From Trueperaceae bacterium (GTDB taxonomy: Bacteria > Deinococcota > Deinococci > Deinococcales > Trueperaceae): a stretch of DNA of 64,000 nucleotides. The stretch lies in assembly GCA_040905465.1 (NCBI GenBank), contig JBBDRK010000049.1, positions 96,001 through 160,000 of the forward strand, given 5' to 3'. Below are positions 43,222 to 61,241 of the stretch, one piece after another (positions within the stretch are counted from its first letter, which is position 1; every line of letters starts with the position of its first letter). The notes beneath the pieces were generated by a model, which worked only from the letters and a program-made list of their open reading frames with translations, made no database searches and had not been told where the DNA came from. The position numbers and the translations under genes were made by a program.

Positions 43222-43250
43222 ACGATAATGCGTAGCGGTAGCGCTGTCAA
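43222..43250 (-). promoter_or_regulatory. Sigma70 promoter TTGACA-17 bp-TATCGT directly upstream of the IclR ATG
   Basis: -35 at 43250-43245 and -10 at 43227-43222; the ATG is at 43213. Confidence 0.65.
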
Positions 43251-43301
43251 CTCAGCTGTCGCGGCCGGTCGGGTCATCGAGACGCAGTACCACGCGGTAC
43301 T

Positions 43302-44465: not shown

Positions 44466-44601
44466 GATGTTCTCCTCCGGTTCACCACCGCTCGATACGG
44501 CAGATGTGGCGTCAGCGATAGCGGGTAGGATAATGCATGCCGAGCACTCCAGCGCCATTCGCCCCGCGGGCTTCCTGCGCATGCGGCGGACGCGGTCGCT
44601 G

Positions 44602-45858: not shown

Positions 45859-46720
45859 GGCGCTTGGCGGAGGAGCCTCCGGCCTGGGCTTCAGGCTCCG
45901 TCACCTACCGGTGTATTTCGTGCTGTTGCTCGGTGCGGTCGTCGCCATAACTCCCTTCTTCTACATGCTGTCGACATCTTTCATGACGCTCGGCGAGGCG
46001 ATCAACCGGCAGTGGCTGCCGGCACAACCGCAGGTCGTGAACTTTGAACGCGCCTGGAACGAGGCCGACTTCGCCCGTTATTTCATGAACAGCGTGATCA
46101 TCACCGCCACAACCATCGCCGGACTGCTGATTACCTCCACCCTTGCGGCCTACGCCTTCGCACGCATCCGCTTCCCTGCTCGCGACCTGATCTTCACGAT
46201 CTTGCTGGCCACGCTGATGATCCCTGAAACGGTCACGTTCATCCCCCAGTACCTGATAATCCGCGGCGACGTCTTCCCACTACCCGGCGGCTCTTGGATC
46301 AATACCCTGCAGGCGCTCACCGTGCCGTTCATGGCCAATGCGGTGAGCATCTTCCTGTTGCGCCAGTTCTTCGCGCGCATCCCGTTCGACCTGTGGGACG
46401 CCGCCCGTATGGATGGCGCCGGACATCTGCGCTTCCTGGTGGCGGTGGTGGTGCCGATGAGCAAGCCGGTGATGCTCACCGTCACCCTGCTCGCTTTCAT
46501 CACCTCCTGGAACGCCTTCCTGTGGCCGATCCTGGTGACCAACAACCCGACCTGGCGACCGCTGATGGTGGGCCTCTACAACTTCATGGGCGAGGCAGGG
46601 CCGGAGACGCACCTGCTGATGGCTGGCGCCATGATCACAATCGTGCCGGTGCTGGTGCTCTACTTCATCGCCCAGAAACAGTTCACCGAGGGGATCGCTA
46701 CCTCCGGGCTGAAGGGCTGA
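45851..46720 (+). CDS. Carbohydrate ABC permease (UgpE/MalG-type)
   Basis: AYAFAR..F, IFLLRQFF, DAARMDGA and WNAFLWP. Confidence 0.93.
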   Translation: MARALGGGASGLGFRLRHLPVYFVLLLGAVVAITPFFYMLSTSFMTLGEAINRQWLPAQPQVVNFERAWNEADFARYFMNSVIITATTIAGLLITSTLAAYAFARIRFPARDLIFTILLATLMIPETVTFIPQYLIIRGDVFPLPGGSWINTLQALTVPFMANAVSIFLLRQFFARIPFDLWDAARMDGAGHLRFLVAVVVPMSKPVMLTVTLLAFITSWNAFLWPILVTNNPTWRPLMVGLYNFMGEAGPETHLLMAGAMITIVPVLVLYFIAQKQFTEGIATSGLKG

Positions 46721-46928
46721 GCGTCAGCTCGCCGACGATCCCTCGGAAGGCCAACTCCAGTTTCCTGTGCGCCTCGTCGAAGCGCTCCCCGCGCCAGTCC
46801 GGTGGCGACACTCCGCCGAGGTCTTCGCCGGCGGCCCGAAATGCGGGCGGGCGCCACGAATCTGACAGTTCCCTGACCTCCAGCCGGTAGAGTGAGGGGA
46901 ACTACTCGCAAGCTTGAAGGGAGAGGGA

Positions 46929-48254
46929 ATGAAGCGATTGAGGTGGATGCTGGGTCTGCTGGTTGCACTATCGCTCACGGCGGCAGTGGCCCAAGGCAAC
47001 CGATACGAGAACGTCGATCCGAGCGGCCAGGAAGTGGTGTTCTGGCACGTTCACAGCGGTCCGAACGGCGAACTGCTGGAATCGATAGTCCAGGACTTCA
47101 ACGAGACGAACGAGTACGGCATCACCGTGGTGGCCGAGCATCAGGGCAGCTATCCGGACATCTTCCAGAAGATTCTGCCGATCCTCGGCAGCGACGACAT
47201 GCCCAACTTGCTCATCGCCTACCAGAACCAGGCCGCCACCTATCAGTTGGCGGATGCCCTGGTCGACATGCGGCCGTTGGTGGAGAGCGACCAGTGGGGC
47301 TTCGGCGAAGCCCGAGCCGACTTCTTCGAGGGCTTCGTGCAGTCGGACGTGTTCCCCAGCTTCGGTGGCGCTCAGCTTGGTTGGCCGCCGAACCGTTCTA
47401 TGGAGGTCCTCTTCTACAACCAGCAGTGGCTCGAGGAGCTGGGCTTCGACAAGGCTCCCACCACGCCGGAAGAGTTTCGGGAAGTGACCTGCGCTGCCTC
47501 ACAGAACCCGTTCAGCGAGGCGGCCGGCCAGGGGGCGATAGGCTTCGAGATGACCGTCGGCGCCAGCACCTTCGCCTCCATGGTCTTCGCCTTCGGCGGC
47601 AACGTCTACGACACGGAGAACAACCGCTACACCTACGACAGCCCTGAGGCGATCGAAGCGATGACCTTCGTGCAGGGCCTGATCGAGGACGGCTGCGCCG
47701 CCATCGAGACCGAACGCTACGGCGCTCAGGCGAACTTCGGGGTCGGTACCACCTTCTCCACCACCGGCTCCTCGGTGGGCATTCCCTACTACGAGCGGGC
47801 GGTAGAGGCGGGAGCTCAGTTCGAGTTCGACGTTGCAGCGATGCCGCACGCCACCCCGAATCCGGTGATGAACGTCTACGGCCCCTCGATCAGCATGGCC
47901 GACGTTGGCGGTCCCGAGGCGCACGTGGCCTCGTGGCTGTTCATCAAGCACCTGAGCACGCCCGAGGCGCAGGCCGAGTGGGCCCGCTTCACCAACTACT
48001 TCCCGGTGCGTGAGAGCGTTGCCCGCGAGCTGGACGAGTACTTCACCGCCAATCCCAAGTTCGAGACGGCCTTCGAGCTGCTGCCGTACGGGGTAGCCGA
48101 GCCGGCCACCCCCGGCTACGACTTCGTACGCGACCTGGTCGGCGACGCCATGGCCGCGATGTTCACCGGCGAGGACGTCGCCGAGACCTTGGCCGACCTG
48201 AACGAAGAGGCGAACGAGATCCTGCAGGACCAGCTCGCCGAGATGCAGAACTAA
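46929..48254 (+). CDS. ABC substrate-binding protein, UgpB-like
   Basis: Signal peptide; FWH, QGSY, P.NRS..LFYN, AP.T.EE and T.Y.PVR. Confidence 0.88.
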   Translation: MKRLRWMLGLLVALSLTAAVAQGNRYENVDPSGQEVVFWHVHSGPNGELLESIVQDFNETNEYGITVVAEHQGSYPDIFQKILPILGSDDMPNLLIAYQNQAATYQLADALVDMRPLVESDQWGFGEARADFFEGFVQSDVFPSFGGAQLGWPPNRSMEVLFYNQQWLEELGFDKAPTTPEEFREVTCAASQNPFSEAAGQGAIGFEMTVGASTFASMVFAFGGNVYDTENNRYTYDSPEAIEAMTFVQGLIEDGCAAIETERYGAQANFGVGTTFSTTGSSVGIPYYERAVEAGAQFEFDVAAMPHATPNPVMNVYGPSISMADVGGPEAHVASWLFIKHLSTPEAQAEWARFTNYFPVRESVARELDEYFTANPKFETAFELLPYGVAEPATPGYDFVRDLVGDAMAAMFTGEDVAETLADLNEEANEILQDQLAEMQN

Positions 48255-48255
48255 C

Positions 48256-48283
48256 AGGCGCAGACTCAAAGGCGCAGACTCAA
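48256..48283. repeat. Perfect 14-bp tandem duplication (AGGCGCAGACTCAA x2)
   Basis: Read directly, immediately after the stop codon of the binding-protein gene. Confidence 0.85.
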
Positions 48284-48461
48284 AGGGCTTGCAAGCCTGC
48301 GTCGAGCCGCAAGCCAACCGGTGTGCCGCGAGTTCGGCCCACCGGTTTTCGTCTGTCGCGTTCGATCGAATCAGGTCCAGCGCACCGCCAGACCGCAGCG
48401 GAAACCGCACCTGAGGTAGCCCTCTACCGCCGCACGTCCCGACGGTGTCGGCCGGACCCGG

Positions 48462-48620
48462 CTACAACGCCACCAGCACGATGAGCAGGACCACCACTGC
48501 CGCCAGCAGCAAGTAGAACAGGATCTTCGCCGCTCCCGCAGCCACACTGGCGACTCCGGTGAAACCGAGGGCGCCGGCGATGACCGCGACGATTGCGAGT
48601 CCGATAATCCATCCGAGCAT
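48462..48620 (-). CDS. DUF1328 (YtjA-like) small membrane protein, 52 aa
   Basis: My translation: MLGWIIGLAIVAVIAGALGFTGVASVAAGAAKILFYLLLAAVVVLLIVLVAL*; GGAGGGG RBS. Below the ORF-track length cutoff. Confidence 0.85.
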   Translation of the reverse strand: MLGWIIGLAIVAVIAGALGFTGVASVAAGAAKILFYLLLAAVVVLLIVLVAL

Positions 48621-48698
48621 TGCACCCCTCCTGCAGCTACGGTAGACCGGTACGCCCGTACCGTTTGTGCCCGGTCATCCGCTGCGAGGGGCAAGCGC

Positions 48699-49877
48699 CT
48701 ACTCCTTGACGAAGAGTCTCCTCGGCACGTTGCTCAGGCACTCCGACCCGTTCTCCGCGATGAGGATGCTCTCGGTGATCTCCATCCCCCAGTCGTCGAA
48801 CCACAGGCCCGGCATCAGGTGGAAGGTCATCCCCGGCTGCAATACGGTCTTGTCACCTGGCCGGAAGCTCATGGTCCGCTCCCCCCAGTCCGGTGGATAG
48901 CTCAGGCCGATCGGATAGCCGGCTCGACTCTCGCGCTCGATGCCGTAGCAGGCTATCGTCCGGGCGAAGGCCGCTTCCACCTCCTCGCAGGTATTTCCCG
49001 GCCGTGCCGCCTCCAGCGCCGCCTCGATACCTTCGAGCAGCGCGCCTTCGGCATGCGTGAACCTCTCGTCCGGCTTGCCGAGGAAGATCGTGCGCGACAG
49101 CGGGCAGTGGTAGCGTTTGTAACAGCCCGCGACCTCGAAATAGGTGCCGTAGCCCCGCTCCATCGGAGCATCGTCCCACGTCAGGTGGGGCGCGCATGCC
49201 TGAACGCCGGTAGGCAGGAGCGGCACTATCGAGGGGTAGTCGCCGCCGAATTCGTCGGTGCCCCGCACGGTAGTGGCGTAGATCTCGGCGACCAGGTCGT
49301 TCTTGCGCATTCCCGGCTCGATCACCTCGAGGATTCGCTGGTGCACCCGCTCCACGATACGCGCTGCCTTGCGCATGTATTCGATCTCCTGCTCCGACTT
49401 GATCGCTCGCTGCCAGTTCACCAGGCAGGTCGCATCCAGCAGGCGGCCATTCGGCAGGTTGCACTCGAGCGCGCGGAAGGCGGCGGCGCTGAAGTAGTAG
49501 TTGTCCATCTCCACGCCGATCGCCAGTTGGTCCCAGCCCCAATCGCGAATGATCAGCGCGAGGTACTCCATCGGGTGGCACTCGGAGGACTGTACGAAGC
49601 GGTCGGGGTAGCCCATCACCCGGTCATCGTTCATGTAGACCGTGTGCTTGGCACCGGTGACGTCGTGCATGCGGCCGTACCAGAGTGGCTCGCCCTGGTC
49701 CGGGACGAGGACACACTGGTGGACGTAGAAGGACCAGCCGTCGTAGCCGGTCAACCAGGCCATGTTCGAAGGGTCGCTGACGATGAGCAGGTTGATCCCT
49801 CGCTCGCTCATCGCGCGTTGCGTCTTGCTGAGACGCTGAGCATATTCCTGCCGGCTGAAGTTGAGCTTGTCGTTCAT
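48699..49877 (-). CDS. eutD: Ectoine hydrolase (M24 family, EutD/DoeA)
   Basis: F...EY..RL, DPSNM.WLTGYDGWSFYVHQ, HPM, EMDNYYF, LVNWQRAIKS, GGDYP, APHLTW and YPPDWGERTMS.RPGD. Confidence 0.92.
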   Translation of the reverse strand: MNDKLNFSRQEYAQRLSKTQRAMSERGINLLIVSDPSNMAWLTGYDGWSFYVHQCVLVPDQGEPLWYGRMHDVTGAKHTVYMNDDRVMGYPDRFVQSSECHPMEYLALIIRDWGWDQLAIGVEMDNYYFSAAAFRALECNLPNGRLLDATCLVNWQRAIKSEQEIEYMRKAARIVERVHQRILEVIEPGMRKNDLVAEIYATTVRGTDEFGGDYPSIVPLLPTGVQACAPHLTWDDAPMERGYGTYFEVAGCYKRYHCPLSRTIFLGKPDERFTHAEGALLEGIEAALEAARPGNTCEEVEAAFARTIACYGIERESRAGYPIGLSYPPDWGERTMSFRPGDKTVLQPGMTFHLMPGLWFDDWGMEITESILIAENGSECLSNVPRRLFVKE

Positions 49878-49917
49878 GCCCGTTCCTTCGGAGGCCGCAC
49901 GCGGCCATGTGATGTGA

Positions 49918-50928
49918 TCACGCATCGAACGTGACCCCTTTGCTGCCAGCACCGACTGGGGTGCTACCAACCGCCCTGGCGTAGGCCAGAGCGGCAATGG
50001 CCGTGTCTTGGGCACCGGTGCCGGTAAGGTCGCACACGGTGATCTGCCGCGCGCCGGTTCGGCCCGCCACTTTGCCGGCGATGACCTCGCCGAGCTCGGG
50101 AAAACTGCTGTCCTCCGGAACCACTCCGGCCAGAACGGCATGGTGCAGCTCGCCCAGCTTGCGGCTTTGGCTCAGCCGGTCGCAAACGAACCGGTCCGCC
50201 CGCACGAGCACGCTCGGGTCGAGCTCGTTCTTGTGCTCGGAGTCCGAGCCCATGGCTGTGACGTGCACGCCGGGCTGCAGCCACTCGCCGCGCACCAGCG
50301 GTTCCCGGCTGGGCGTGGTGGTGACGACGATGTCGCTCTCCCGTACCGCACGTTCGGGCGAACCGACCGGTACCACGCCGATGCCCAGCCTCTCGCTCAT
50401 CTCTTCGGCGTACTGCCGTGCCTTGTCCTCACGCCGCGCCCACACCAGAGCCCGTTCTATCGGCCGCACCAGAGTCAGGGCCTCCAGTTGCAGCCGAGCC
50501 TGAGCGCCGGCGCCGATGATTCCGGCCGTACCGCTCTCCGGACGTGACAGCGAGCGCGCGGCAACTGCGCCGGCCGCGGCGGTTCGCACATCGGTGAGAT
50601 AGCCGTTGTCGAGAAGGAGGGCCAGCACCTGACCGGTCGTGCTGCTCAGCAAAATCATCAGCCCGCCCAGGCTGGGTAGCCCCAGCTTCGGATTGTCGAA
50701 GAAGCCCGGACTCACCTTTATGGCGAAGCTGTCCAGCCCCGGCAGGTAGGCGCTCTTCACGTCGACCTCGCCGTTGTGCTCGCGGATGTCGAGCCTCATT
50801 ACCGGCGGCATCACCACGTCGCTGGTCGCCAGCAACCGAAAGCACTCCTCTACGGCATCAACGGCCCTCCTGTCGAGCGGCACCAGCGACCTGAGTTCCG
50901 ATTCGTTCAGAAGCCGCACGCTCGCCAT
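49918..50928 (-). CDS. eutC: Ectoine utilization protein EutC (ornithine cyclodeaminase/mu-crystallin family)
   Basis: GEVDVK.AY.PG, SPGFFDNP.LGLPS, LLDNGYLTDVRTA, AMGSD..HKNE and DLTGTG.QDTAIA. Confidence 0.9.
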   Translation of the reverse strand: MASVRLLNESELRSLVPLDRRAVDAVEECFRLLATSDVVMPPVMRLDIREHNGEVDVKSAYLPGLDSFAIKVSPGFFDNPKLGLPSLGGLMILLSSTTGQVLALLLDNGYLTDVRTAAAGAVAARSLSRPESGTAGIIGAGAQARLQLEALTLVRPIERALVWARREDKARQYAEEMSERLGIGVVPVGSPERAVRESDIVVTTTPSREPLVRGEWLQPGVHVTAMGSDSEHKNELDPSVLVRADRFVCDRLSQSRKLGELHHAVLAGVVPEDSSFPELGEVIAGKVAGRTGARQITVCDLTGTGAQDTAIAALAYARAVGSTPVGAGSKGVTFDA

Positions 50929-50929
50929 G

Positions 50930-52087
50930 TCAATCGCCTCCCCGGTCAGGCCGCGACCCTTTGGTTGGCGCCGTCCTCGTTACTCCGGCGCGTCCCTGCT
51001 GCTCCGCCGCACTGCCGTCGTATGCCGCTGTCAGCCGGGCGTGCAGTTCGCCGTCTATGTTCCCGCCGCTGAGCAGGACTACCGTCGTCTCGAAACGCCC
51101 ATGGTCCCGGTGGCGGCTGTCGGACACGTTGGTCGAATAGACTCCAGGCGCAGCTTTGCGACCAGCGGCCTCGGCAAGCAGTCCCGCGATTCCCACCGCC
51201 CCGGCGCCCTCGACGACCTGCCCCTCCATCCAGTGGGCATGCCCGATGGCGGCCGCCAGCGACTCTTCGCCCACCAGCAGGTGCTCATCCACCAGTGAGC
51301 GCACCATCTCGAAGGTGAAGCGGTTATCGCGGCCGATACCCCCGCCGAGCGAGTCCGCCAGGCTCTCCGGCTCCTCCACCTCGACCGGCTTGCCGGCCTC
51401 CAGGCTTCGGTACATCGCGCAGCCCCGTTCCATGCTCACTGCGGTGATGGTGACCCGAGGATCGAGCGACTTGAGCGCCAAGGCGACTCCGGCGATCAGC
51501 CCACCACCGGAGAGCGGCACGATCATGCGCAGCAGACCGCCGTTCCGGTCGGCGCCCGCGAGTTCCGCCAACTGCTCGTTTACTTCGGTTCCGATTGTCC
51601 CCTGTCCCGCTATGACCTCGGCGTGGTCGAAGGGAGGTATCAGCGCCATTCCCTGCTCGCTCACCAGCCGCGCCGCTTCTCGCTGGGCTTCGTCCTGGCT
51701 GGCGCCGACTACCCGCACTTCGGCTCCCTGCTCCTCGACAGCAGAGACCTTGTTGCGAGGCACCAACCGAGACAGGCATACGACCGCACGGGCTCCTGCC
51801 TGACTGCAGGCAAAGGCGACGGCCCGACCGTGGTTACCGGTCGACACCGTGACCACGCCCCGGGAGCGTTGCTCGTCGCTGAGTGCCAGGACGGCGTTCA
51901 GCGCACCGCGCAGCTTGAAGCTGCCGGTACGTTGCAGGTTCTCGAGTTTCAGGTAGACGTCGGCACCCGTCAGCCGGCTCAGCTCGGCGGAGCGTACCAA
52001 CGGCGTTCGCACGACGTGAGCAGCCAGCCGCGCCCTCGCACGGTCCACGTCCTGCAACGACAACCCGCCGGGCAACGGGCCCCTCAT
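50930..52087 (-). CDS. eutB: Hydroxyectoine utilization dehydratase EutB (PLP, threonine dehydratase family)
   Basis: LKLE..Q.TGSFKLRG, STGNHGRA, SQDEAQ, IPPFDH, PLSGGGL, SLADSLGGGIG and LSG.NID. Confidence 0.9.
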   Translation of the reverse strand: MRGPLPGGLSLQDVDRARARLAAHVVRTPLVRSAELSRLTGADVYLKLENLQRTGSFKLRGALNAVLALSDEQRSRGVVTVSTGNHGRAVAFACSQAGARAVVCLSRLVPRNKVSAVEEQGAEVRVVGASQDEAQREAARLVSEQGMALIPPFDHAEVIAGQGTIGTEVNEQLAELAGADRNGGLLRMIVPLSGGGLIAGVALALKSLDPRVTITAVSMERGCAMYRSLEAGKPVEVEEPESLADSLGGGIGRDNRFTFEMVRSLVDEHLLVGEESLAAAIGHAHWMEGQVVEGAGAVGIAGLLAEAAGRKAAPGVYSTNVSDSRHRDHGRFETTVVLLSGGNIDGELHARLTAAYDGSAAEQQGRAGVTRTAPTKGSRPDRGGD

Positions 52088-52090
52088 CGC

Positions 52091-53602
52091 TCAGCCGGCT
52101 CCGGGTCCACGTTCGTCTGATCCTCGCTGCGGTTCTCTGCGCGGGTCCAGATGCTCGGAGCGGTCGGAGGAGCTGTCGACCCGTACGCCCTTCAAGCGGA
52201 AGCTCAGCAGCTTCGGCTCGCTCATCTCCTCCATCGCGAACCTCACTCCCTCACGGCCGAGGCCCGATCCCTTGGGCCCGCCGAACGGCATAGCGTCGAT
52301 GCGGTAATCGCTGCTGTCGTTGACTATCACCCCACCGTAGTCGAGCTCGTCGCTCACCTGGAAAGCGGTGTCGAGGTCCTGCGTGAAGATCGCTGCCTGG
52401 AGGCCGAACTCGACCGCGTTGGCCTGCTCGATCGCCTCGTTCAGCACGGCGAAAGGCTGCACCAGACTCACCGGACCGTAGACCTCTTCCCGGTAGAGCC
52501 GCGCCGTCGGAGAGACTCGGTCCAGCAACGTCGGCTGGAAGAAGCTCCCTTCCCGCCGTCCGCCCGTGAGGCAGCGGGCTCCCTGGGACAACGCATCCTC
52601 GACCATCTCCTCGACCCTGGCCGCCGCAGCTTCATCGATCATCGGACCCATGTCGGTTGTCTCGTCCAGCTTGTCGCCCATTCGCAGGTGCTCGGCTCCG
52701 GCCACCAGCTTCGGAATTAGCCGGTCGAACACACTTTCGTGAACCAGAATCCGCTGTGCATGCAGGCAGTTCTGACCGGCCGCCCAGAAGGCCCCGCTCA
52801 CTATCGACTCGGCGGCCTCCGCTAGATCGGCGTCGCCCAACACGATCACTGGAGCGTTGTTCCCCAGCTCCATGGCGTACTTCTTGAAGCCGCCATCGCG
52901 CATGATCCGCTCGCCGGTCTCTCGTCCCCCGGTGAAGGAGATCAGGCGAACCCGTGGGTCCCGCACCAGCTCCACGCCCACGCTGCTGCCCGGTCCGGTC
53001 ACCACCTGCAAGACGCCGGTCGGAACTCCAGCCTCATGGAGCGCCGCCGCCAGCTTCAGGGCGGATAGCGGCGTGCGGCTGTCGGGCTTGACGATCACCG
53101 CATTACCGGCTGCCAGCGCCGGTCCCACCTTGTGGGCGACAAGGTTGAGCGGATCGTTGAAAGGAGTGATGGCGCCAACGATCCCGATAGGCTCGCGCGT
53201 CCAGAACCCCTTGCGCCGCTCGCTGCCCGGAACCTGATCGAAACGGATGGTCTCGCCGTCGAGCCGCCTGGCCTCCTCCGCGCTGATCCGGAGCGTCTCC
53301 ACGCAACGCGCCACCTCGGCTCGCGCCTCACGAATTGTCTTTATGCCCTCCAGCGCGATGGTTCGGGCGAACGCCTCGCTCTCCCTTGCGATGGTGGCGG
53401 CAGCCTCGCTGAGGACACGCATTCGTTCATGGGTCGGCGCCTTGCGCCAGTGACGCCCACCTTCCACCGCACAGTCGATCGCGTGCCGCATCTGGCCGGC
53501 GTTGGCCATGGGGACTGTGTCGACCAAGGTGCCGTCCTGTGGATTTCGCACCTCGATGACCTTCACCGCTTGCTCCCAACGACCGGCGATCAGCATGTTC
53601 AC
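52091..53602 (-). CDS. Aldehyde dehydrogenase (lactaldehyde-DH/GAPN-like subfamily)
   Basis: ITPFNDPLNLVAHK, SFTGG, MELG, AGQNC (catalytic Cys), EE.YGP and MPFGG.K.SGLGREG. Confidence 0.92.
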   Translation of the reverse strand: MNMLIAGRWEQAVKVIEVRNPQDGTLVDTVPMANAGQMRHAIDCAVEGGRHWRKAPTHERMRVLSEAAATIARESEAFARTIALEGIKTIREARAEVARCVETLRISAEEARRLDGETIRFDQVPGSERRKGFWTREPIGIVGAITPFNDPLNLVAHKVGPALAAGNAVIVKPDSRTPLSALKLAAALHEAGVPTGVLQVVTGPGSSVGVELVRDPRVRLISFTGGRETGERIMRDGGFKKYAMELGNNAPVIVLGDADLAEAAESIVSGAFWAAGQNCLHAQRILVHESVFDRLIPKLVAGAEHLRMGDKLDETTDMGPMIDEAAAARVEEMVEDALSQGARCLTGGRREGSFFQPTLLDRVSPTARLYREEVYGPVSLVQPFAVLNEAIEQANAVEFGLQAAIFTQDLDTAFQVSDELDYGGVIVNDSSDYRIDAMPFGGPKGSGLGREGVRFAMEEMSEPKLLSFRLKGVRVDSSSDRSEHLDPRREPQRGSDERGPGAG

Positions 53603-54696
53603 GACACCCGCACGCCCTTCAGCCCACCTCTCGAGCCTGGACTGGCCGCAAAGTTGCCGGAGGCCCGCCGGTGGATCTTAAGCAGATCGGCGATCATCGC
53701 GTAGCCTGTTTCCAGCCTGCCGGCGCCGGGGCCGACCAGAGTCACGTCGCCCAGGTAGTCGGTCGTGAAGGTGACAGCGTTGGTAGCGCCGCTGATGCCA
53801 GCCAACGGATGATCCTTGGCCACCCGTTGCGGCGCCACCCGAGCAACGAAGCTCCCGGCGGCCCGCTCGCCGGCAGCCCGTTCTACCGTGCCGATCAGCT
53901 TCCAGACCTGCCCGTCCGCTTCCGCCTGCGCCAGATCTTCGGCTGTGAGTTCGCTGATTCCCCGACGCTCGACGTCGCCGATTCCGATCGGCAGGTCCAT
54001 TACCAGATTGGCCAGGATAGCCACCTTGCCGGCGGCGTCGATTCCCTCTACGTCCCCGGTCGGGTCGGCCTCTGCGTACCCCTTCTCCTGCGCCTCGCTG
54101 AGCGCGGCGGCGTACTCGAGTCCCTCGCCCATTCGAGTGAGGACGTAGTTGGTCGTGCCGTTGAGGATCCCTTCGATCTTTCGGACGCCCGCGCCCTTGA
54201 GCATCTCGGTGCCGAGAGCCAAGGTGGGCGTTCCGCTCATCACGGTAGCTTCAACGCCGATGGTCCGCCCCTTGTTGCGGGCCAGCTCGAGCAGTTCGGG
54301 AAAGCGTAGCGCCACCGGTCCCTTGTTCGACATGACGACGTGCTTGCCGCTGGCCAGGGCTCCCTGGGCATGGGTGTAACCCGGCTCACCTGTCTCCAGA
54401 TTGGTGTAGGCCATCTCGAGGACGGCGTCGGCGTCGCACTCCATGATCGTCCTGATCGCGTCCCAGCCTTTGTGCGGAGCGTCGATGCGCTCCAGGTCGT
54501 CGGCGTTCTGCAGCAGTGTCTGGGCGTCCAGCCCTGACGGCCGGTACACGCTGCCACGCTTGATGTCGCTCACCGCCACGATCTCGAAGTCCGCGCCGAA
54601 CTCGTTCCAGTAGCTGTCGCGCCGCTCGGCCAGGATCTCCGCTACGCCCTGGCCCACCGTGCCGAAGCCGATAAGGGCGAGCCGGTAAGTGGTCAC
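53599..54696 (-). CDS. hom: Homoserine dehydrogenase (short form, no ACT domain)
   Basis: IGFGTVG, HVV.SNKGP, EATVMSG.P, GILNGTTNY, GYAEADP..DVEG.DAA.K and GPGAG..ET. GTG start overlaps the upstream stop. Confidence 0.9.
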   Translation of the reverse strand: MTTYRLALIGFGTVGQGVAEILAERRDSYWNEFGADFEIVAVSDIKRGSVYRPSGLDAQTLLQNADDLERIDAPHKGWDAIRTIMECDADAVLEMAYTNLETGEPGYTHAQGALASGKHVVMSNKGPVALRFPELLELARNKGRTIGVEATVMSGTPTLALGTEMLKGAGVRKIEGILNGTTNYVLTRMGEGLEYAAALSEAQEKGYAEADPTGDVEGIDAAGKVAILANLVMDLPIGIGDVERRGISELTAEDLAQAEADGQVWKLIGTVERAAGERAAGSFVARVAPQRVAKDHPLAGISGATNAVTFTTDYLGDVTLVGPGAGRLETGYAMIADLLKIHRRASGNFAASPGSRGGLKGVRVS

Positions 54697-55967
54697 TGGA
54701 GTGCACCTTCCCTCTTGTCGACCGTGTTGCCGAAGCGCTCCATGGTCGCGGCCAGCGCCTGGTCGAGGTCGGCGATGAGATCGTCGGCGTGCTCTATTCC
54801 AGCCGAGTAGCGCACCAGGGTCTCGGGAATGCCGGCGGCGGCACGCTCCTCGGCGGTGAGCTCGACGTGGGAGCCGGTCGCGGGCGGCGCCACTATCGTT
54901 TCCACCGCGCCCAGGTTGGCGGCACGGTGCACGCGCTGCAGCTTCGGCAGAAAGGTCCGGATAGCGTCGAAATCGTCGGTCGCCAACTGGAACGAGAGCA
55001 TGCCGCCGTAACCGCGCATCTGCTTGCGGGCGATGTCGTGGTTGTGGTGGGTTTCCAGGCCCGGATAGAAGACCTCGCCGATGAACGGGTGTGCCGCCAG
55101 CCAGCGAGACACCTTCATGGCGTTGGCGTTCTGGCGTTCGACCCGCAAGTCGAGGGTTTTCATTCCCCTGAGGAGCAGGTAGGCCGCCTCCGGGTGAAGG
55201 GTGGCGCCGTTGATCTCCCGGAAGTGATAGATGTCGTGGATCACGCCGGCCGGCCCGCACACGACACCGCCGAGCGCATCGGCATGGCCTCCCAGGAACT
55301 TGGTGGCCGAGTGCAGCACCAGGTCGGCGCCGAGCTGCAGCGGGTTCTGGTTGATGGGCGTGGCGAACGTGTTGTCCACCACCACCAGCGCTCCCACCTC
55401 GTGGGCCCTGGCCGCCAACCGTTCGATGTCGAGGACCTTGCAGGTGGGGTTGGTGGGCGTCTCCAGGTAAAGGATCTTGCAGCCCTTGGCGACCTCGGCT
55501 TCGATGGCCGCGAAGTCGGAAGTGTTGCACAGGGTAACGTCGAATCCGAACTTGGGGAAGAACTCGGTAAAGATCTTATGGGTGCCGCCGTAGGTGTCCT
55601 TCACGCTCACGCACCGGTCACCCGGGTCCATCAGGGTGAATAGCGTGTTGCTGATGGCAGCCATGCCGGTGGAGAAGCTGGTGGCCGCCTCGGCCCCCGC
55701 CGATTCTCCACCTTCCAACAGTCGCACCTTCTCCTCGAATACCTCTACCGTCGGATTGGTGTTGCGCCCGTAGATGTGACCCTTGCGCTCTCCCAGGGCG
55801 ACCTCTCGCCAGGTGTCGACATCCTGGTAGCCGAAACTGACGCTGTGCACGACCGGCACCTGGGTCACGCTTTCCATCAGGTACTGTTCTTCCCCGCCCC
55901 ATACGGCAACGGTTGCCTTGCTCAGGTGCGACGGCGACTTTTCCACTGGCTTGTTGTCATCAGGCAT
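54693..55967 (-). CDS. Cystathionine gamma-synthase/lyase family PLP enzyme (MetB-like)
   Basis: Y.R..NPT, STGMAAI, YGGT, ETPTNPT, VDNTFATP, HSATKFLGGH, LRGMKTL and ANLG..ET. Confidence 0.92.
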   Translation of the reverse strand: MPDDNKPVEKSPSHLSKATVAVWGGEEQYLMESVTQVPVVHSVSFGYQDVDTWREVALGERKGHIYGRNTNPTVEVFEEKVRLLEGGESAGAEAATSFSTGMAAISNTLFTLMDPGDRCVSVKDTYGGTHKIFTEFFPKFGFDVTLCNTSDFAAIEAEVAKGCKILYLETPTNPTCKVLDIERLAARAHEVGALVVVDNTFATPINQNPLQLGADLVLHSATKFLGGHADALGGVVCGPAGVIHDIYHFREINGATLHPEAAYLLLRGMKTLDLRVERQNANAMKVSRWLAAHPFIGEVFYPGLETHHNHDIARKQMRGYGGMLSFQLATDDFDAIRTFLPKLQRVHRAANLGAVETIVAPPATGSHVELTAEERAAAGIPETLVRYSAGIEHADDLIADLDQALAATMERFGNTVDKREGALQ

Positions 55968-56694
55968 CGAATTCGAACTCCTTCGTTGTGTCCACGTCGA
56001 ATATGGCGCTGCTCAGGTAGTGGTTGAAGCGCTGGAGATTCCAGGCCATGTGATAGCGGCGGATCCGGGCTACCTCCTGCATGTCCTTGGCGTCCATCGC
56101 CGCTGCGATCTCGCGCATCTCCTGCACCGCGATCCCGACTTCCTGCTCCCACTCCATGTCGGGGAGAACCTGCAAGTACATGCGCGAGGTCTGATAGAAC
56201 AGTCGGTCCATGATCTCGAGGAACGGGCGGTTGCCGATGGCGAGCCCGAACTCCTGGGCGAAGTACATATAGATACGGGCGAGCTCCCGATAGTCTCGGG
56301 TCGGCAGCAACGCCTCGACTGCGTCGGCGAGCTCGGACATTCGCTGAAGGTTTTCTTCGGTAACCCTGCCGGCGGAAAAGTCGGCCACCAGCTCCGTCAG
56401 CTTGAAGCGCAGTGCGTAGACCTGCTGCAGGTACACCAGATCGATGCTGGTCACTATCGTGCCCACGCCGGCGATGCTCTCCACCAGTCCGTCGTATTCC
56501 AGGCCGTAGAAGACCCGCTTGATAACGGTGCGACTGGTATCGAAGCGCTTGGCCATGGCGTTCTCGCTCAGGGCGCTGCCCGGTGCGTGGTCGAGGAGAC
56601 AGATCTCTTCTCGCAGGACACGAGCGATCGCCTCCGTTCCTTCCGCGGCGTCGGCATCGAGGGTTGGGATAGCTGCTTCTGTCATCGTTTCCAC
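55960..56694 (-). CDS. GntR family transcriptional regulator (FCD)
   Basis: LREEI...PGS.LSE..A.RF..SRT.I, GVGT.VT and GN..L. Confidence 0.88.
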   Translation of the reverse strand: METMTEAAIPTLDADAAEGTEAIARVLREEICLLDHAPGSALSENAMAKRFDTSRTVIKRVFYGLEYDGLVESIAGVGTIVTSIDLVYLQQVYALRFKLTELVADFSAGRVTEENLQRMSELADAVEALLPTRDYRELARIYMYFAQEFGLAIGNRPFLEIMDRLFYQTSRMYLQVLPDMEWEQEVGIAVQEMREIAAAMDAKDMQEVARIRRYHMAWNLQRFNHYLSSAIFDVDTTKEFEFDA

Positions 56695-56763
56695 TCTTCC
56701 GGGACGGTGGATCGAGGGCCCGCCTGGCGAATTTCCGAGGGCCGATTGAAGGCTTGCTTACAA

Positions 56764-56775
56764 GTTGAGTACAAC
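56764..56775. promoter_or_regulatory. Putative GntR operator GTTG-AGTA-CAAC
   Basis: Inverted repeat about 70 bp upstream of the GntR gene that heads the ectoine operon. Confidence 0.5.
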
Positions 56776-56947
56776 CTGTGAACATGCTAGGTGCCCGGCG
56801 GGATGATGTCAATAGGCGCGCGTGTAAGAAGCCAGCTTTGCGCGAAAATGGACGTTTGCCGTCCGCCGTCCCCTTGCTATGGCGGTGTAGTCGGCGACCT
56901 TGCCTCTATGGTAGAATTGCCATGGGGCTCAGGAGCGATGCTGACAC

Positions 56948-57309
56948 ATGCGACAGCAGAAGCCCGTCAGATGGGTAGGTTCGTCACTCAAGGACCTGCA
57001 GGCGATGCCCGAGGAAGTCAAGGACGAAATCGGCTTCGTTCTCGGTCGCGTTCAAGAGGGAAAGGGTCATCAGAGCATCAGGCCGCTCTGTCCGGATTTC
57101 AGGGCGTGTCGGAGATCAAGTCCGACCTTAGTTCGGACACCTTTCGCCTCGTATACGTCGCCGATCTGCCTGACGCAATCTATGTTCTACATGCTTTCAA
57201 GAAGAAGTCCAAGAAGGGAATTAGTATCCCGAAGCACGAGATTGACGTCATCCGAGCCCGGGTGATGAGAGCGCAGGAGGCATCCGATGAAGAAGGAAAA
57301 CAACGATAG
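56948..57309 (+). pseudogene. Frameshifted RelE/ParE (Gp49/HigB-like) toxin
   Basis: N-half MRQQKPVRWVGSSLKDL..PEEVKDEIGFVLGRVQEG..SIRPL is in one frame; C-half SGFQGVSEI...TFRLVY....IYVLHAFKKKS is in another. The shift maps to CTCT at 57086-57089. Confidence 0.85.
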
Positions 57310-57613
57310 CGTCGTTAGCGGCAGCGGGAACGTGTTTGCCGACCTGGGGCTGTCGAACCCAGAAGAACGAAGCGTAAAAGCGAGGCTCGCGAGCAAGATA
57401 TACGACAAGATCGAGGCGAGTGACTGGACGCAAACACAAGCTGCCCACGAGCTCGGTATTAGTCAACCGGACGTTTCTCGCCTGACTCGTGGCATCCTCA
57501 ATGACTTCTCGATAGACCGCTTAATGATGCTTCTGGGGAGACTCAACTACCGTGTAAGCATTCATCTCCAAAGCGAGAACGAGCAATCGGACGAGATCCT
57601 CGTTTCGGCCTAA
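57287..57613 (+). CDS. HigA-like XRE/HTH antitoxin
   Basis: SGNVFADLGL, K..LA..I, TQ..AA..LGISQP.VS.L and FS.DRL. Confidence 0.9.
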   Translation: MKKENNDSVVSGSGNVFADLGLSNPEERSVKARLASKIYDKIEASDWTQTQAAHELGISQPDVSRLTRGILNDFSIDRLMMLLGRLNYRVSIHLQSENEQSDEILVSA

Positions 57614-58157
57614 GAAACGCACGTCCGCGCCGGTTCGCGTCTCTTGTGGCGACGAGGTCGCGGAGGATTATTGTGTTGAACCCTTCGGCCGACGCTCGTC
57701 GTGCTGTCGCATCGACGCAGATCTCCGTTCTTACCCCGCTGACCAAGAGGTTCCTGACACCTCGAGAAAGCAGCTCCCCTGAGAGCATGGTGTGAGCGAA
57801 GGCATCGAAGTGCGGCTTCTCGACGATTACCGAACCTGCCGGAATCTTCATTTCGCAGAGTTCCTCGCCGCCCGTGCCTCTTCTCACCGGTGGATTCACT
57901 CCCATGACCTGGCGGAAGAGTTTCAGGTTCCACGGCATTGTTTGCTCGTCAACGATCGCCTTCGTAAACACTACGAAGACGCCAAGGTCGCTCAATCTCC
58001 GGACGACTTTTTCAATCCTGCTGGGTAGGAGGAGCATGTCGGTTACGGGATGACTCGACTTTGCGCTCTTCCCTTGCGGCGAGCAGAAGTCAACCTGTAG
58101 GTCCACCACGATCAGGGCGGTCTGCGTGGCAAGCAAGTGGAGTTCAGGAGGAAGCAT
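57543..58157 (-). pseudogene. Isochorismatase-family cysteine hydrolase, probably C-terminally truncated
   Basis: TALIVVDLQ.DF, EK..FDAF and G..TEICVD.TAR (D-K-C triad). After LRDLVATRD the frame runs antisense into higA for 71 bp instead of the usual final helix/strand. Confidence 0.6.
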
Positions 58158-58511
58158 CAAGGCCACGTGCCACTGGGAGGTTCCACGCGCACAGACCAAC
58201 AAAGACCAGGACTAGAACGACCTTGGTTACTGCAGAATGGACTGCGTCTGACCACAGAGTCATAAAAACCTTGTCTTCCTTTGCCGAGGGGCATCGGCGC
58301 ATGAAGGTCGAAGTGGAACTGAGCAACCCTGCTCAACTGGCTCACGTCAACAGGAATGCGTTGAAGGAATCTCGACTCGAACGACATCCGGGGCCTCCGA
58401 CAATGTGGGGGTGAAACGTAGAAACAGGGTAGTTTCTTCGCACAGACCACCACGTTTATTCGTTTCGATGCTCAATTCTCGAGACGGTTGAATCGCAATG
58501 GAGGTGAAACA

Positions 58512-58796
58512 ATGATCATTGTGTCCGGAAAACTTTACGTCGATCCAATCGTTCGCGACTCGTACCTTGCGGACTGCCGCGACATAATCGAGAAGGCGAG
58601 AAGCACGGATGGTTGCATTGACTTCCACATTGCTGCCGATCCCTTGGAAAGTGACCGCATAAACGTGTTCGAGCAGTGGGCGTCGATTGCCGACCTAGAG
58701 GTTTTTCGCGGCTCTGGACCATCATCTGAGCAGGCCGCTCAGATCCGCGAGGCACAGGTATCTCAGCATGAGGTTGGCTCGTCACAGAAGCTGTGA
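58512..58796 (+). CDS. Antibiotic biosynthesis monooxygenase (ABM) family / putative quinol monooxygenase
   Basis: MIIVSG.L.V, R...GC.DF...D and VFE.W; GGAGGTG RBS. Confidence 0.85.
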   Translation: MIIVSGKLYVDPIVRDSYLADCRDIIEKARSTDGCIDFHIAADPLESDRINVFEQWASIADLEVFRGSGPSSEQAAQIREAQVSQHEVGSSQKL

Positions 58797-58931
58797 AACT
58801 CGCGAAGAAGCTGGCCGGATACTTTGGAGTCGTCGTCGGGCTCTTCGTCTGACATTGTTGTACGGCACGGGACCAGTCAAATTGCGCCCACAGAGTCAAT
58901 ATTCGCTTCGGGGAGCCAGCCGGTTCTCCCT

Positions 58932-60470
58932 TCAGCCATTCATCCAGACGAACCTCACCCGGCTCCCTGCCGCCAGTTGCCCTGCCTTGTGCAGGTCGCC
59001 GGGATGCAGCAGAGCCGGCTTTACATATCCGCCCAGGGTCCCGCGGTCGTTCAGCAGGAGAATCGGCGAGCCGCCGGGAGGAACCTGGATCGCGCCGAGA
59101 GGGACGGCCTCTGAGAGGATCTCGCCGCCCGGAACGAGGTCCCCGTCGAACCGGACGCCCAGCCGATCGGCCGACGCCACCCGGAAGCGCCCCCTCGATG
59201 GGCCGGCGGTAAGCGCTTCGGCCGCCTCCTTCGATTCCTGCGGTCCGGGCAACAAGCGCAGGACGACCGGATCCTCCGGCCGGCGGTGAGGCCTGAACGA
59301 GAATCCCGGCCGAGCCGAGCTTCGAGCCGCAACAGCAAGCAGGTCACCGGCTGCGAGGCGACTTCCGATCATGCCCCTCAAGTCGGTCGAGGAACTCCCG
59401 GAGAAAGAGTTGGCAGCAATGCCTCCGGCGAGTGCCAGATAGCCCCGGCAGCCCACCCGCTCTCTCCCGCGGCCGAACCTTGCGTCGGCAAACGAGAGAA
59501 CGTCGCCCCGGCTTACCGTGAAAGAGCGGAAGGGATCGACTTCCTGGCCGTTCAACAGGGGCGACAGGCCCCATCCGGCATAGGCCAGAACGCCCGGAGC
59601 GACCACCTCGAGCACAGGACCCCGCAAGTTCATCTCCAGCAAGGGGGCGGCGGCGACGTTGCCCAACAGGGCGTTGGCCAGCGCGGCGGAACGAGGATCC
59701 AGCGGCCCGCCACGGCTGAGACCGAATCGGCCCACCAGGAAGCGGCCGCGGTCGACCACCAGATCGAGCAGTCCCGGCTCGCGTACCAGCAGGAGGGGCA
59801 GTTTCGGTTCGGCAGGCAGGAGAGCTACCGGAGCCGGCTCGTCGGGCGGTATGCCCTCCGCGGGATTGAAACGGACCCTGTCGCCCGGCCGCAGCAGGAA
59901 CGGCTCCTCACGATGCGGGTCATACACCCTGACCAATGCCCGGCCGACAAGCTGCCAGCCGCCGGGCGACGCCAGCGGGTATATCCCGGTCTGGGGGCCT
60001 GCGATGGCGACCGAGTGCGCGGGGACGCGTTTGCGGGGGGACGGGTGGCGGGGCACTCGAATTTCGGCCGGTACCTCGCCCATGAACGGGAATCCCGGCG
60101 AGAATCCCATGGCGTACACACGGTACTGCTCGGCGCTGTGGCGCTCGATCACCTGGGCGGAAGTCAGCCCGGAGCGCTCGGCGACGTTCGGCAGATCTTC
60201 TCCGCCATATGCCACCGGAATCTCGACATCACTGCCGGAGTGGGACAATTCGTTCTCGGCATGGCGCTCCACCCACCTGCGAACGCGGCCTTCGCTCACC
60301 CGCCAGGCGTCATACTCCACGTACAGCGACGCGTAGCCGGGTAGCAGGTCGGTGACTCCCGCTGGTACGTCTGCCAACAGGCTAGCCGCAAGAGCGTGAA
60401 CCCGAGCGTTGGCGAGCGGGTCCATCGACTCGGAGAATCGCAGGTAGATGCCACGCGGGTAGTGGTTCAG
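58932..60470 (-). CDS. pxpB: Fused 5-oxoprolinase subunits B and C (PxpB-PxpC / KipI-KipA)
   Basis: P.Y.SL, IPV.YG..DL, GF.PGF, YP..SPGGW..GR (PxpB); D.GR, G..D, AN.LLGN, DR.G, GAIQVP and T.GGY (PxpC). The open frame extends to CTG 60470; the first ATG is at 60425. Confidence 0.88.
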   Translation of the reverse strand: MNHYPRGIYLRFSESMDPLANARVHALAASLLADVPAGVTDLLPGYASLYVEYDAWRVSEGRVRRWVERHAENELSHSGSDVEIPVAYGGEDLPNVAERSGLTSAQVIERHSAEQYRVYAMGFSPGFPFMGEVPAEIRVPRHPSPRKRVPAHSVAIAGPQTGIYPLASPGGWQLVGRALVRVYDPHREEPFLLRPGDRVRFNPAEGIPPDEPAPVALLPAEPKLPLLLVREPGLLDLVVDRGRFLVGRFGLSRGGPLDPRSAALANALLGNVAAAPLLEMNLRGPVLEVVAPGVLAYAGWGLSPLLNGQEVDPFRSFTVSRGDVLSFADARFGRGRERVGCRGYLALAGGIAANSFSGSSSTDLRGMIGSRLAAGDLLAVAARSSARPGFSFRPHRRPEDPVVLRLLPGPQESKEAAEALTAGPSRGRFRVASADRLGVRFDGDLVPGGEILSEAVPLGAIQVPPGGSPILLLNDRGTLGGYVKPALLHPGDLHKAGQLAAGSRVRFVWMNG

Positions 60471-60479
60471 GCGTCTCCC

Positions 60480-61241
60480 CTAATACGCCCGGACGCTTAC
60501 GCCGGCCGATTCGAGCGTCTCCCGGACCGCCTTGGCGATCTCGACCGACTCGGGATTGTCGCCGTGGATGCACAGTGTCTGTGGCTCGAGTACAATGCTG
60601 CCGCCGTCGAGGGTCTCGACCGGCTCGCCCCGCGCCATCCGCAAGGCGCGCTCGCCTGCGAGGCGGGGCTCGCGAATCAGCGAACCGGCAACGCTGCGAG
60701 GAGCAAGCAGACCGTTGGCAAGGTAGCCACGGTCGGGGAACGCCTCGCGAACCACCCACGCCCCTTCGGCCTCTGCCGCCCGCTGCATGGCAGTGCCGGC
60801 CAGAACTACCAGGGGCAGCGAGCGCTGGAAGGCTCTGACCGCGGCTGCCACCGCGCGCGTGAGTTCGTCATCGCCGAGCATCTGCATATAAAGCGCCCCG
60901 TGCGGCTTCACGTGATGGAGCGTGAGCCCCTCCGAGCGGACGAACGCGTCGAGAGCGCCGACCTGATAGAGGACGTCGGCATACGCCTCCTCCGCTGCCA
61001 GGCTCAACTCGCGCCGCCCGAAACCGACCCGGTCGGCATGGCCGGGATGCGCGCCAACGGCGACTCGGTGTTGCCCGGCCAGCCGTACCGAGCGGCGCAT
61101 GGTGAGCGGGTCGCCGGCATGGAAGCCGCACGCGAGATTCACCGAGCTGACCAGCGGGTAGAGTTGCTCGTCTCGTCCCATCGGCCAGGGCCCGAAAGAC
61201 TCGCCGGCGTCGGCATTGATGTCGATAGCGTCTGCCGCCAT
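60480..61241 (-). CDS. pxpA: 5-oxoprolinase subunit A (LamB/YcsF family)
   Basis: DIN.D.GESFG, N.ACGFHAGD, GAHP...D..GFGRR, HVKPHGALY, E.F.DR.Y and CIHGD. Confidence 0.94.
   Translation of the reverse strand: MAADAIDINADAGESFGPWPMGRDEQLYPLVSSVNLACGFHAGDPLTMRRSVRLAGQHRVAVGAHPGHADRVGFGRRELSLAAEEAYADVLYQVGALDAFVRSEGLTLHHVKPHGALYMQMLGDDELTRAVAAAVRAFQRSLPLVVLAGTAMQRAAEAEGAWVVREAFPDRGYLANGLLAPRSVAGSLIREPRLAGERALRMARGEPVETLDGGSIVLEPQTLCIHGDNPESVEIAKAVRETLESAGVSVRAY

Follow-up and report, generated by a model that had tools for sequence, protein, structure and literature searches.

A variant ectoine catabolic operon of a Trueperaceae bacterium: a conserved gene set and a possible route through homoserine to aspartate

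Introduction

How can ectoine be degraded by a bacterium whose ectoine operon encodes neither the deacetylase nor the transaminase of the known pathway? This question is raised by a seven-gene operon in the DNA analysed here (the window), a stretch of 64,000 nucleotides from the Trueperaceae bacterium contig JBBDRK010000049.1 (C49:96001-160000; assembly GCA_040905465.1, 3.5 Mb in 81 contigs, 95% complete). In saline soils and the sea, ectoines rank among the most abundant osmolytes rich in nitrogen, and their turnover is so far explained by a single pathway, elucidated in Proteobacteria. In this canonical pathway, as outlined in the relevant sections of two reports, DoeA/EutD, DoeB/EutE, DoeD/Atf and DoeC/Ssd act in turn (PMC3187862, PMC8739950). 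The window operon carries, besides ectoine genes, a pyridoxal phosphate (PLP) enzyme related to cystathionine gamma-synthase (CGS), here called cgs, and a homoserine dehydrogenase gene, hom. We propose that ectoine and 5-hydroxyectoine could be converted through homoserine to aspartate by a deacetylase- and transaminase-independent route, a reading to which we give a probability of about 0.45.

Such a route would imply a second lower pathway of ectoine degradation, freeing ammonia or acetamide, and would for the first time place a large, uncharacterised branch of the CGS family in a functional context. The gene set is conserved in the phylum of the window, where the nearest homologues with a name belong to Deinococcales and Trueperaceae, and is also present in Bacillota and on Klebsiella plasmids. 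Annotation pipelines and marker surveys that demand EutD together with EutE would miss ectoine consumers of this kind.

A tightly coupled operon for ectoine and hydroxyectoine

Pfam and NCBIfam identify seven open reading frames (ORFs) on the minus strand at 48699-56694, in the order gntR-cgs-hom-ALDH-eutB-eutC-eutD. The first gene, gntR (55960-56694, with an alternative ATG start at 56685), encodes a GntR/FCD-family regulator (PF00392 and PF07729). It is followed by cgs (54693-55967), coding for a PRK08249-type PLP enzyme of Cys/Met metabolism (NF006097, 652.3 bits against a cut-off of 600; PF01053, 418 bits), and by hom (53599-54696), which starts with GTG and encodes a short homoserine dehydrogenase of the catabolic type that lacks an ACT domain (NF004912, 408.3 bits against 373). 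The product of the aldehyde dehydrogenase (ALDH) gene (52091-53602; PF00171, 519 bits) is proposed to be a non-phosphorylating aspartate-semialdehyde dehydrogenase; it receives no NCBIfam assignment, since its top model, lactaldehyde dehydrogenase, scores 505.8 bits, below the cut-off of 650. Next come eutB (50930-52087), a threonine-dehydratase-like PLP enzyme of hydroxyectoine utilisation (NF005680, 431.8 bits against 413), and eutC (49918-50928), of the ornithine-cyclodeaminase/mu-crystallin family (NF006141, 515.1 against 408; TIGR02992, 502.6 against 471.65). The last gene, eutD/doeA (48699-49877), has the M24/creatinase fold (TIGR02993, 695.3 bits against 613). Strong homology assigns EutD as an ectoine hydrolase: it aligns at 548.8 bits with the solved DoeA of Halomonas elongata (structures 6TWK/6YO9) and is 64% identical to the DoeA of Klebsiella plasmids.

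The gene junctions are typical of a translationally coupled operon. The overlap of gntR and cgs is 8 nt, those of cgs with hom and of hom with the ALDH gene are 4 nt each (GTGA), and the remaining gaps measure 3 nt (ALDH-eutB), 1 nt (eutB-eutC) and 40 nt (eutC-eutD). The preliminary description of this DNA had listed the same seven genes as mostly overlapping or abutting, and it was correct wherever checked, all seven lying on the minus strand at the positions it gave. Its statement that the operon lacks eutE, a diaminobutyrate transaminase, enuR and a transporter was likewise borne out: Pfam and NCBIfam revealed in the operon neither eutE nor a gene for a class-III aminotransferase, a MocR regulator or a transporter. 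Together with the comparisons described below, these data confirm a real, conserved and tightly coupled catabolic operon for ectoine and hydroxyectoine.

In comparison with the DoeABCD-EutBC system of H. elongata and the EutABCDE-Ssd-Atf systems of Ruegeria pomeroyi and Sinorhizobium meliloti, the genome shares EutD/DoeA, EutB, EutC and an Ehu-type importer, and an aldehyde dehydrogenase is here too proposed as the last step to aspartate. Unlike these systems, the operon contains no EutE/DoeB, DoeD/Atf, EnuR or AsnC, and its regulator is of the GntR/FCD type; additional genes encode a PRK08249 PLP enzyme and a homoserine dehydrogenase, and the transporter is unlinked. The role of EutB and EutC presumably lies in the hydroxylated branch. 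In H. elongata, deletion of eutB/eutC is reported to leave growth on ectoine unimpaired (PMC3187862), and the passages of PMC8739950 that deal with the EutB/EutC steps term them unknown.

In the route that we propose, ectoines would be imported by the unlinked EhuABCD, and EutD, given its homology to the characterised enzyme, would open the ectoine ring to yield N-acetyl-2,4-diaminobutyrate (N-acetyl-DABA). The cgs product would then act on a ring-opened compound with a free alpha-amino group, most likely, in this lineage, directly on N-gamma-acetyl-DABA, and perhaps on DABA as well. By gamma-elimination at the C-gamma-N bond and addition of water, in the manner of canavanine gamma-lyase, it would release homoserine and acetamide (or ammonia). 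Hom would oxidise homoserine to aspartate semialdehyde and the ALDH would complete the conversion to aspartate, as homology to rhizobial hom-ALDH pairs suggests, while EutB and EutC would handle the hydroxylated intermediates.

The gene set is conserved and alternates with DoeB

The occurrence of this gene set was surveyed in 364 genomes of the phylum of the window; one of the genomes counted, G324, is flagged as unpublished, and no particular conclusion depends on it. A DoeA-type EutD above the cut-off is found in five of them, the present one included, all belonging to one family, and cgs lies inside the operon in four of the five. Two congeners carry the identical seven-gene operon, and a further genome, G340, has the order gntR-cgs-ehuBCDA-eutBCD, without hom-ALDH. 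EutE is above the cut-off in none of the four sister genomes, three of which give no match at all. With regard to the pattern that the preliminary description had proposed to survey in eutD loci, a metB-like gene plus hom versus eutE plus an aminotransferase, cgs is present in four of five loci and EutE above the cut-off in none of the four sisters; hom is missing in G340 and cgs in G243.

A broader picture emerges from cgs itself. PRK08249 genes above the cut-off occur in 63 of the 364 genomes, and 40 of the 59 loci outside EutD-type genomes were scored (tblastn panel, E < 1e-15, at least half of the query covered). Twenty-six of these 40 loci are linked to a DoeA2-like M24 gene, gntR, ehuABCD and mostly EutB/EutC; as the clusters were sampled through cgs, its presence in all 26 is by construction. 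The hom-ALDH pair directly follows cgs in 13 of the linked clusters and is absent from the other 13. No member of the DoeB, EutE-like and M20 panels had a match in the 26 linked clusters or in the four sister EutD-type loci. The other loci comprise 12 stand-alone copies, one on a contig too short to judge, and one cgs-hom-ALDH arrangement. The latter (L109, G245:C279) lies on a contig of 47% G+C in a GC-rich lineage and may be foreign or mis-binned DNA; its products are 62% (cgs), 55% (hom) and 60% (ALDH) identical to those of the window, with no Ehu or M24 genes within reach.

The smallest arrangement, a minimal cluster of M24, gntR, ehuB, cgs and ehuCDA, was recognised through panel matches in six genomes, and its flanks were unrelated in the three of the six checked with Pfam. 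In one of these clusters (L123 9410-11611, G298:C6) ehuB and cgs share a single ORF of 733 aa (SBP_bac_3 plus Cys_Met_Meta_PP), which could be a real fusion or merely reflect the lack of a stop codon in very GC-rich DNA. At several loci of genus g34 (L099, L117-L121, L127), the PRK08249 gene has another CGS-family gene at a distance of 3-5 kb, a paralogue with 31-36% identity to cgs; it is present in linked as well as in stand-alone contexts.

Independent sampling through the DoeA2-like M24 gene, with positions relative to cgs cross-read by hand, retrieved 41 of the 364 genomes. In 30 of them cgs is within 3.5 kb, in five it is on another short contig, and six have no PRK08249 match. Two of these six loci end at a contig break, one M24 gene is a pseudogene, and in the other three genomes, which belong to a single genus, M24 is immediately followed by a DoeB-like gene (320.9 and 320.5 bits over the full length in the two scored). 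Where the sequence is sufficient (G314 and G316), M24-doeB is divergent from gntR-ALDH-ehuA, and neither cgs nor hom is present; the cluster of G314 extends to ehuABCD-eutB-eutC. The ALDH orthologue (64% identity) is kept in these DoeB-type sister clusters without hom, whereas hom, where present, stands beside cgs in every cluster but that of G243 (17 of 18). Otherwise orthologous clusters of one lineage thus contain either DoeB or cgs, the latter accompanied or not by hom, and the ALDH is kept in both types. The gene set is a conserved variant and no chance adjacency. The deacetylase independence suggested in the preliminary description is favoured by this swap and by the panel results, a DoeB-like gene being placed only where cgs and hom are missing; occurring within one lineage, the swap also makes the hypothesis directly testable with four purified enzymes.

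Two other candidates were considered and rejected. The first is the amidase near M24 in clusters such as that of the metagenomic genome L010, where a DoeA2-like M24 gene is divergent from gntR-cgs-hom-ALDH-ehuABCD-eutB-eutC. It could have been a deacetylase or an acetamidase but is the orthologue of the genome's only GatA above the cut-off, and since this orthologue lies inside a wider syntenic block, it is taken as housekeeping. The second was the acetamidase/formamidase family PF03069, which might have indicated the release of acetamide; with members in 220 of the 364 genomes, it is uninformative.

The conservation of the clusters also bears on the possibility that the operon serves some other cyclic amidine or amino-acid derivative, or that cgs and hom are methionine/threonine biosynthesis genes placed here by chance. 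PRK08249 genes do occur alone in housekeeping-like contexts, and the ALDH and GntR proteins carry no assigned specificity. Against this, EutD, EutC and EutB pass equivalog cut-offs, with EutD at 549 bits to the solved ectoine hydrolase; Ehu transporter genes are found within the orthologous clusters; a housekeeping Hom and further CGS-family paralogues are encoded separately in the genome; and the operon is one translationally coupled unit of seven genes with a single regulator. We consider such an explanation very improbable.

Deacetylase, transaminase and transport genes elsewhere in the genome

The search for eutE/doeB, a gene that normally neighbours eutD, had been proposed as a check in the preliminary description; it gave nothing above the cut-off in the whole genome, the best score being 139.3 bits against 402.7. 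This best match, a weakly scoring EutE-like ORF just upstream of the window, 52 kb from eutD, was rejected as the deacetylase: it stands beside Opp-like permeases and has no counterpart in three of the four sister genomes carrying the operon (G287, G288 and G243). A DABA transaminase and a transporter, missing from the operon as described earlier, do exist in the genome: EctB is encoded within an ect cluster, and a complete ehuABCD set is found elsewhere.

EctB is the only DABA transaminase above the cut-off. Its gene belongs to an ectA-ectB-ectC-ectD-ask cluster on another contig (C50:7600-14300), in which all genes are assigned and ask codes for a dedicated aspartate kinase; judging from this cluster, the organism makes both ectoine and hydroxyectoine. 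A gene of the diaminopropionate-ammonia-lyase family (NF006058, 338.8 bits against 276) lies just upstream of ectA. The four ehu genes, all above equivalog cut-offs, are unlinked to the operon: ehuA and ehuB lie at the end of contig C51 (24347-26331), and C74 begins with ehuC and ehuD (1-1417), so these two contigs are very probably adjacent. An EnuR-like MocR regulator was not detected, the only tblastn match to the Klebsiella EnuR in the genome being partial, at 25%. EutA (TIGR02990) was not found either, but the control for this model was also blank, which makes this a weak absence.

The Hom-ALDH pair and the fate of homoserine

The nature of the expected product can be approached from the Hom-ALDH pair. 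Hom is 45-48% identical to the products of rhizobial plasmid hom genes that are paired with an ALDH gene (pRL8 and R. acidisoli pRapFH23b), and the ALDH is 49-50% identical to its counterparts in the same pairs. Its identity to the ALDHs of Priestia and L010 reaches 57-61%. The rhizobial and operon proteins form a catabolic Hom group with A(V/I)(S/T)D at the end of beta-2, unlike the housekeeping Hom of the genome; the Asp at this position we take to be a mark of NAD preference. These resemblances support the earlier suggestion that Hom and the ALDH would oxidise homoserine to aspartate and, as a consequence, cgs is best read as the enzyme that would deliver homoserine, by C-gamma-N cleavage and addition of water.

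A characterised parallel is provided by the canavanine gamma-lyase (CanGL) pathway (Hauth et al. 2022, PMC9533460). According to the sections of that report dealing with the pathway, a CGS-family lyase yields homoserine from canavanine, and the pair of homoserine dehydrogenase and aldehyde dehydrogenase was reconstituted biochemically for Pseudomonas, taking homoserine to aspartate (PMC9533460). By analogy, the window operon would likewise combine a CGS-family PLP lyase producing homoserine with an NAD-type Hom and an ALDH leading to aspartate. In the rhizobial loci, hom and the ALDH gene overlap in the same way, and the architecture of the pRapFH23b locus is that given by Hauth et al. for the rhizobial canavanine locus (PMC9533460). 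The two systems also differ in several respects. The window cgs is only 37% identical to the CanGL-like R. acidisoli gene, which is not placed in the PRK08249 clade; an N-linked group (acetamide or ammonia) would leave, and not the O-linked hydroxyguanidine; and the operon includes no aspartate ammonia-lyase.

Several observations, concerning first the product and then the enzyme and its substrate, weigh against the homoserine route. Of the 26 clusters linked to cgs, 13 lack hom-ALDH, and so does G340, where the sole Hom match shows 39% identity and is of housekeeping type. Since so many cgs clusters lack hom-ALDH, homoserine is not forced as the product. Conversely, G243 (94% complete; L055 13548-15322, C56) has gntR directly followed by hom-ALDH-eutBCD, without cgs, and no PRK08249 gene above the cut-off was detected in its genome.

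The same observations can be accommodated if cgs is a plain gamma-lyase, converting DABA or N-acetyl-DABA to 2-oxobutyrate and ammonia, with Hom and the ALDH in a side branch, for example for EutB/EutC intermediates of hydroxyectoine. Such an activity would suit the cgs copies without hom-ALDH (the 13 clusters, G340 and the Klebsiella plasmids described below), the cgs-less locus of G243, and the nearest solved relatives of cgs, which are gamma-lyases and gamma-synthases at a similar closeness of about 300 bits. On the other hand, hom directly follows cgs in 17 of the 18 hom-bearing clusters, with a 4-nt overlap in the window, and DoeB-type clusters lose hom along with cgs while keeping the ALDH. 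Moreover, clusters without hom can use homoserine via threonine synthesis. Formation of 2-oxobutyrate thus appears improbable to us, and conversion of homoserine to aspartate remains the preferred function of the pair.

Related clusters on plasmids and in other lineages

A tblastn search of plasmids with cgs retrieved Priestia megaterium (65-66% identity) and many Klebsiella plasmids (58%). The P. megaterium plasmid pBMV_1 has the order pucR, eutB, pdxS, M24, cyclodeaminase, cgs, M20, hom, ALDH. It thus encodes the same enzyme set as the window, with identities of 66% for cgs, 48% for hom, 57% for ALDH, 48% for eutB, 54% for eutC and 49% for eutD. The Gram-positive clusters differ in having PucR, an in-cluster M20 gene ('abgB') and another gene order, whereas the window operon has GntR and no amidohydrolase. 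On a Klebsiella plasmid the order is ehuABCD, a MocR gene, doeA, doeB, cgs; these plasmids have no doeD or doeC. The Klebsiella plasmid L008 carries an antitoxin-toxin pair near the ectoine genes, similar to an Xre-like antitoxin and RES-domain toxin pair found at 27624-28671 of the window.

Clusters of Bacillales were previously described as 'pucR-eutBCD-atf / abgB-thrA-adh', with eutE noted as absent, and were called tentative (Boas Lichty et al., AEM 2026, PMC13188858); the passages of that paper on these clusters give no mechanism or chemistry. Judging from the annotation of pBMV_1, its 'atf' is probably the CGS-family gene. Searches of the open-access literature for DoeB2, and for ectoine together with diaminobutyrate, homoserine and gamma-lyase, gave no description of the route. 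New here are the two independent samplings in the phylum, the minimal two-enzyme cluster, and the swap between DoeB and cgs plus hom, as well as the homology between the operon's Hom-ALDH pair and those of rhizobia and the candidate operator described below.

The PRK08249 enzyme and its substrate

The cgs product matches NF006097/PRK08249 over positions 8-396 of 402 and is 58-81% identical to the cgs proteins of other ectoine-type clusters. With the characterised members of PF01053 (CGS, cystathionine gamma-lyase, methionine gamma-lyase, O-acylhomoserine sulfhydrylase) it shares the fold and the PLP-lysine motif, presumably the SATK of its sequence. It also contains YGGT, with a Gly in place of the Cys of the YGCT motif of methionine gamma-lyases. 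Unlike those members, it belongs to the PRK08249 subfamily and would have a catabolic role in an ectoine operon.

This subfamily is functionally uncharacterised, which is the first of the difficulties on the side of the enzyme. Stand-alone homologues, 64-70% identical to cgs, are present in Desulfovibrio, Acidobacteriales, Caldilineaceae, Pseudodesulfovibrio, Rubrobacteraceae and Acidimicrobiia, and none of the five genomes with a stand-alone PRK08249 gene (64-67% identity) that were searched has an EutD-like gene; within the phylum, stand-alone copies account for the 12 of 40 sampled loci mentioned above. In the tree, the cluster-linked copies are not monophyletic, and the alignment revealed no active-site signature proper to them. 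One column, Glu/Asp at residue 190, separated seven linked from six stand-alone copies, but it was discarded as a specificity determinant: it is not part of the PLP motifs, and Glu is found there in a paralogue and in a frameshifted stand-alone copy as well. Since linked copies form no clade and stand-alone copies occur without EutD, PRK08249 has some other, general activity that the clusters recruit.

With regard to the substrate, N-gamma-acetyl-DABA is the aza-analogue of O-acetylhomoserine, and no deacetylase is found in any cgs-type cluster of the phylum, the two-enzyme minimal form included. The ectoine context of these clusters is indicated by the ehuABCD genes embedded in those of G340 and in the 26 cgs-linked ones. 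The N-gamma isomer is a known product: DoeA expressed in Escherichia coli is reported to give N-alpha- and N-gamma-acetyl-DABA at 2:1 (PMC3187862), and the gamma isomer (gamma-ADABA) is described as accumulating, without explanation, in ectoine-fed R. pomeroyi (PMC8739950). It is possible, though on balance rather doubtful, that cgs represents a new kind of PLP C-gamma-N lyase that converts N-gamma-acetyl-DABA to acetamide and homoserine, in which case two dedicated enzymes would suffice to bring ectoine into central metabolism. Such a lyase would explain the gamma-ADABA pool of ectoine-fed bacteria.

Four difficulties arise for this substrate. An amide nitrogen is a poor leaving group, the ammonium of DABA being a better one. 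EutD is closest to DoeA/EutD enzymes for which the alpha isomer is the main reported product (in R. pomeroyi, the only one), and N-alpha-acetyl-DABA cannot bind this PLP family through its alpha-amine. The existence of DoeB-type sister clusters implies that the orthologous M24 enzyme makes N-alpha-acetyl-DABA. Finally, the doeA-doeB-cgs order of Klebsiella and the M20 gene between cgs and hom in Priestia fit an action of cgs after deacetylation.

These points suggest another scheme, in which cgs acts on free DABA and releases ammonia after the action of an unlinked amidohydrolase or of a bifunctional hydrolase, so that only the transaminase is replaced. On the Klebsiella plasmids doeB stands directly before cgs, without doeD or doeC; an M20 gene belongs to the Priestia cluster, and 'abgB' is reported for the Bacillales clusters (PMC13188858); and NH3 is chemically the easier leaving group. 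Potential deacetylases also exist in the genomes themselves. Two CpsA-like M20 amidohydrolases are encoded in the present genome (C29 and C50; 333-337 bits to the DoeB2 model, cut-off 550), and unlinked CpsA-like M20s occur in all five EutD-carrying genomes, the four sisters included (307-362 bits); they could deacetylate, which again counts in disfavour of a deacetylase-free route. However, Deinococcus radiodurans and other control genomes carry them as well, so they are not specific. The M20 protein of the Priestia cluster is 37-39% identical to the unlinked M20s of the genome and 28% identical to the M20 amidohydrolase encoded in the window (43302-44660), 4 kb from eutD. The latter was rejected as the missing deacetylase: it scores 229.8 bits with TIGR01891 but only 45.9 bits with DoeB2, has no counterpart in the regions of synteny in G287 and G243, and sits with a hydantoinase/DUF1177/IclR cluster. 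Given in addition that no deacetylase-type gene was found in the 26 cgs-linked clusters or the four sister loci, and that a DoeB-like gene is placed where cgs is absent, we regard prior deacetylation to DABA as somewhat unlikely. An enzyme accepting both N-gamma-acetyl-DABA and DABA would reconcile all the patterns.

Promoter and candidate operator

A promoter-like site, TTGACA-17 nt-TAGCAT (56784-56812, minus strand), with 10 of 12 consensus matches, precedes gntR and is the sole minus-strand promoter-like site within 48200-57300. Two tandem TTGTAnnCAA motifs (56754-56774, minus strand) begin 10 nt downstream of the -10 box and form a candidate GntR operator, at which the GntR/FCD protein may repress the operon. 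The motif has two matches in the window, both at this site, against 0.24 expected; this enrichment test is partly circular, because the pattern was derived from the site itself. Across the 3.5-Mb genome there are 12 matches, among which this is the only tandem pair. Orthologues of gntR (42-88% identity) head the related clusters, and related motifs lie upstream of the orthologous gntR in five related loci. The tandem motif is thus a lead to the operator and not a proof of it. A wider regulon was sought through the same motif and discarded: no second tandem site exists, and none lies upstream of ehuABCD or of any amidohydrolase. Single sites elsewhere in the genome are near an inositol-type cluster and unrelated genes.

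Neighbouring genes

Downstream of the operon and convergent with eutD, genes at 44467-48254 encode a CUT1-type ABC transporter (two permeases and an SBP_bac_8 protein). It was considered as an ectoine importer, as it also stands beside eutD in G287 and G243, and was set aside: the genes that come after it in G287 are ROK, DeoC, GFO/IDH/MocA, PfkB and lyxose-isomerase-like, and it is probably a sugar system. Further along, the minus-strand region 32914-44660 carries hydantoinase/oxoprolinase B and A, DUF1177, a Pot-type ABC transporter (two permeases, ATPase and binding protein), IclR and the M20 gene. On the other side, upstream of the operon (57543-61241), lie genes for an isochorismatase-family hydrolase, weakly similar to biuret amidohydrolase, a fused PxpB/PxpC 5-oxoprolinase of 497 aa, and PxpA.

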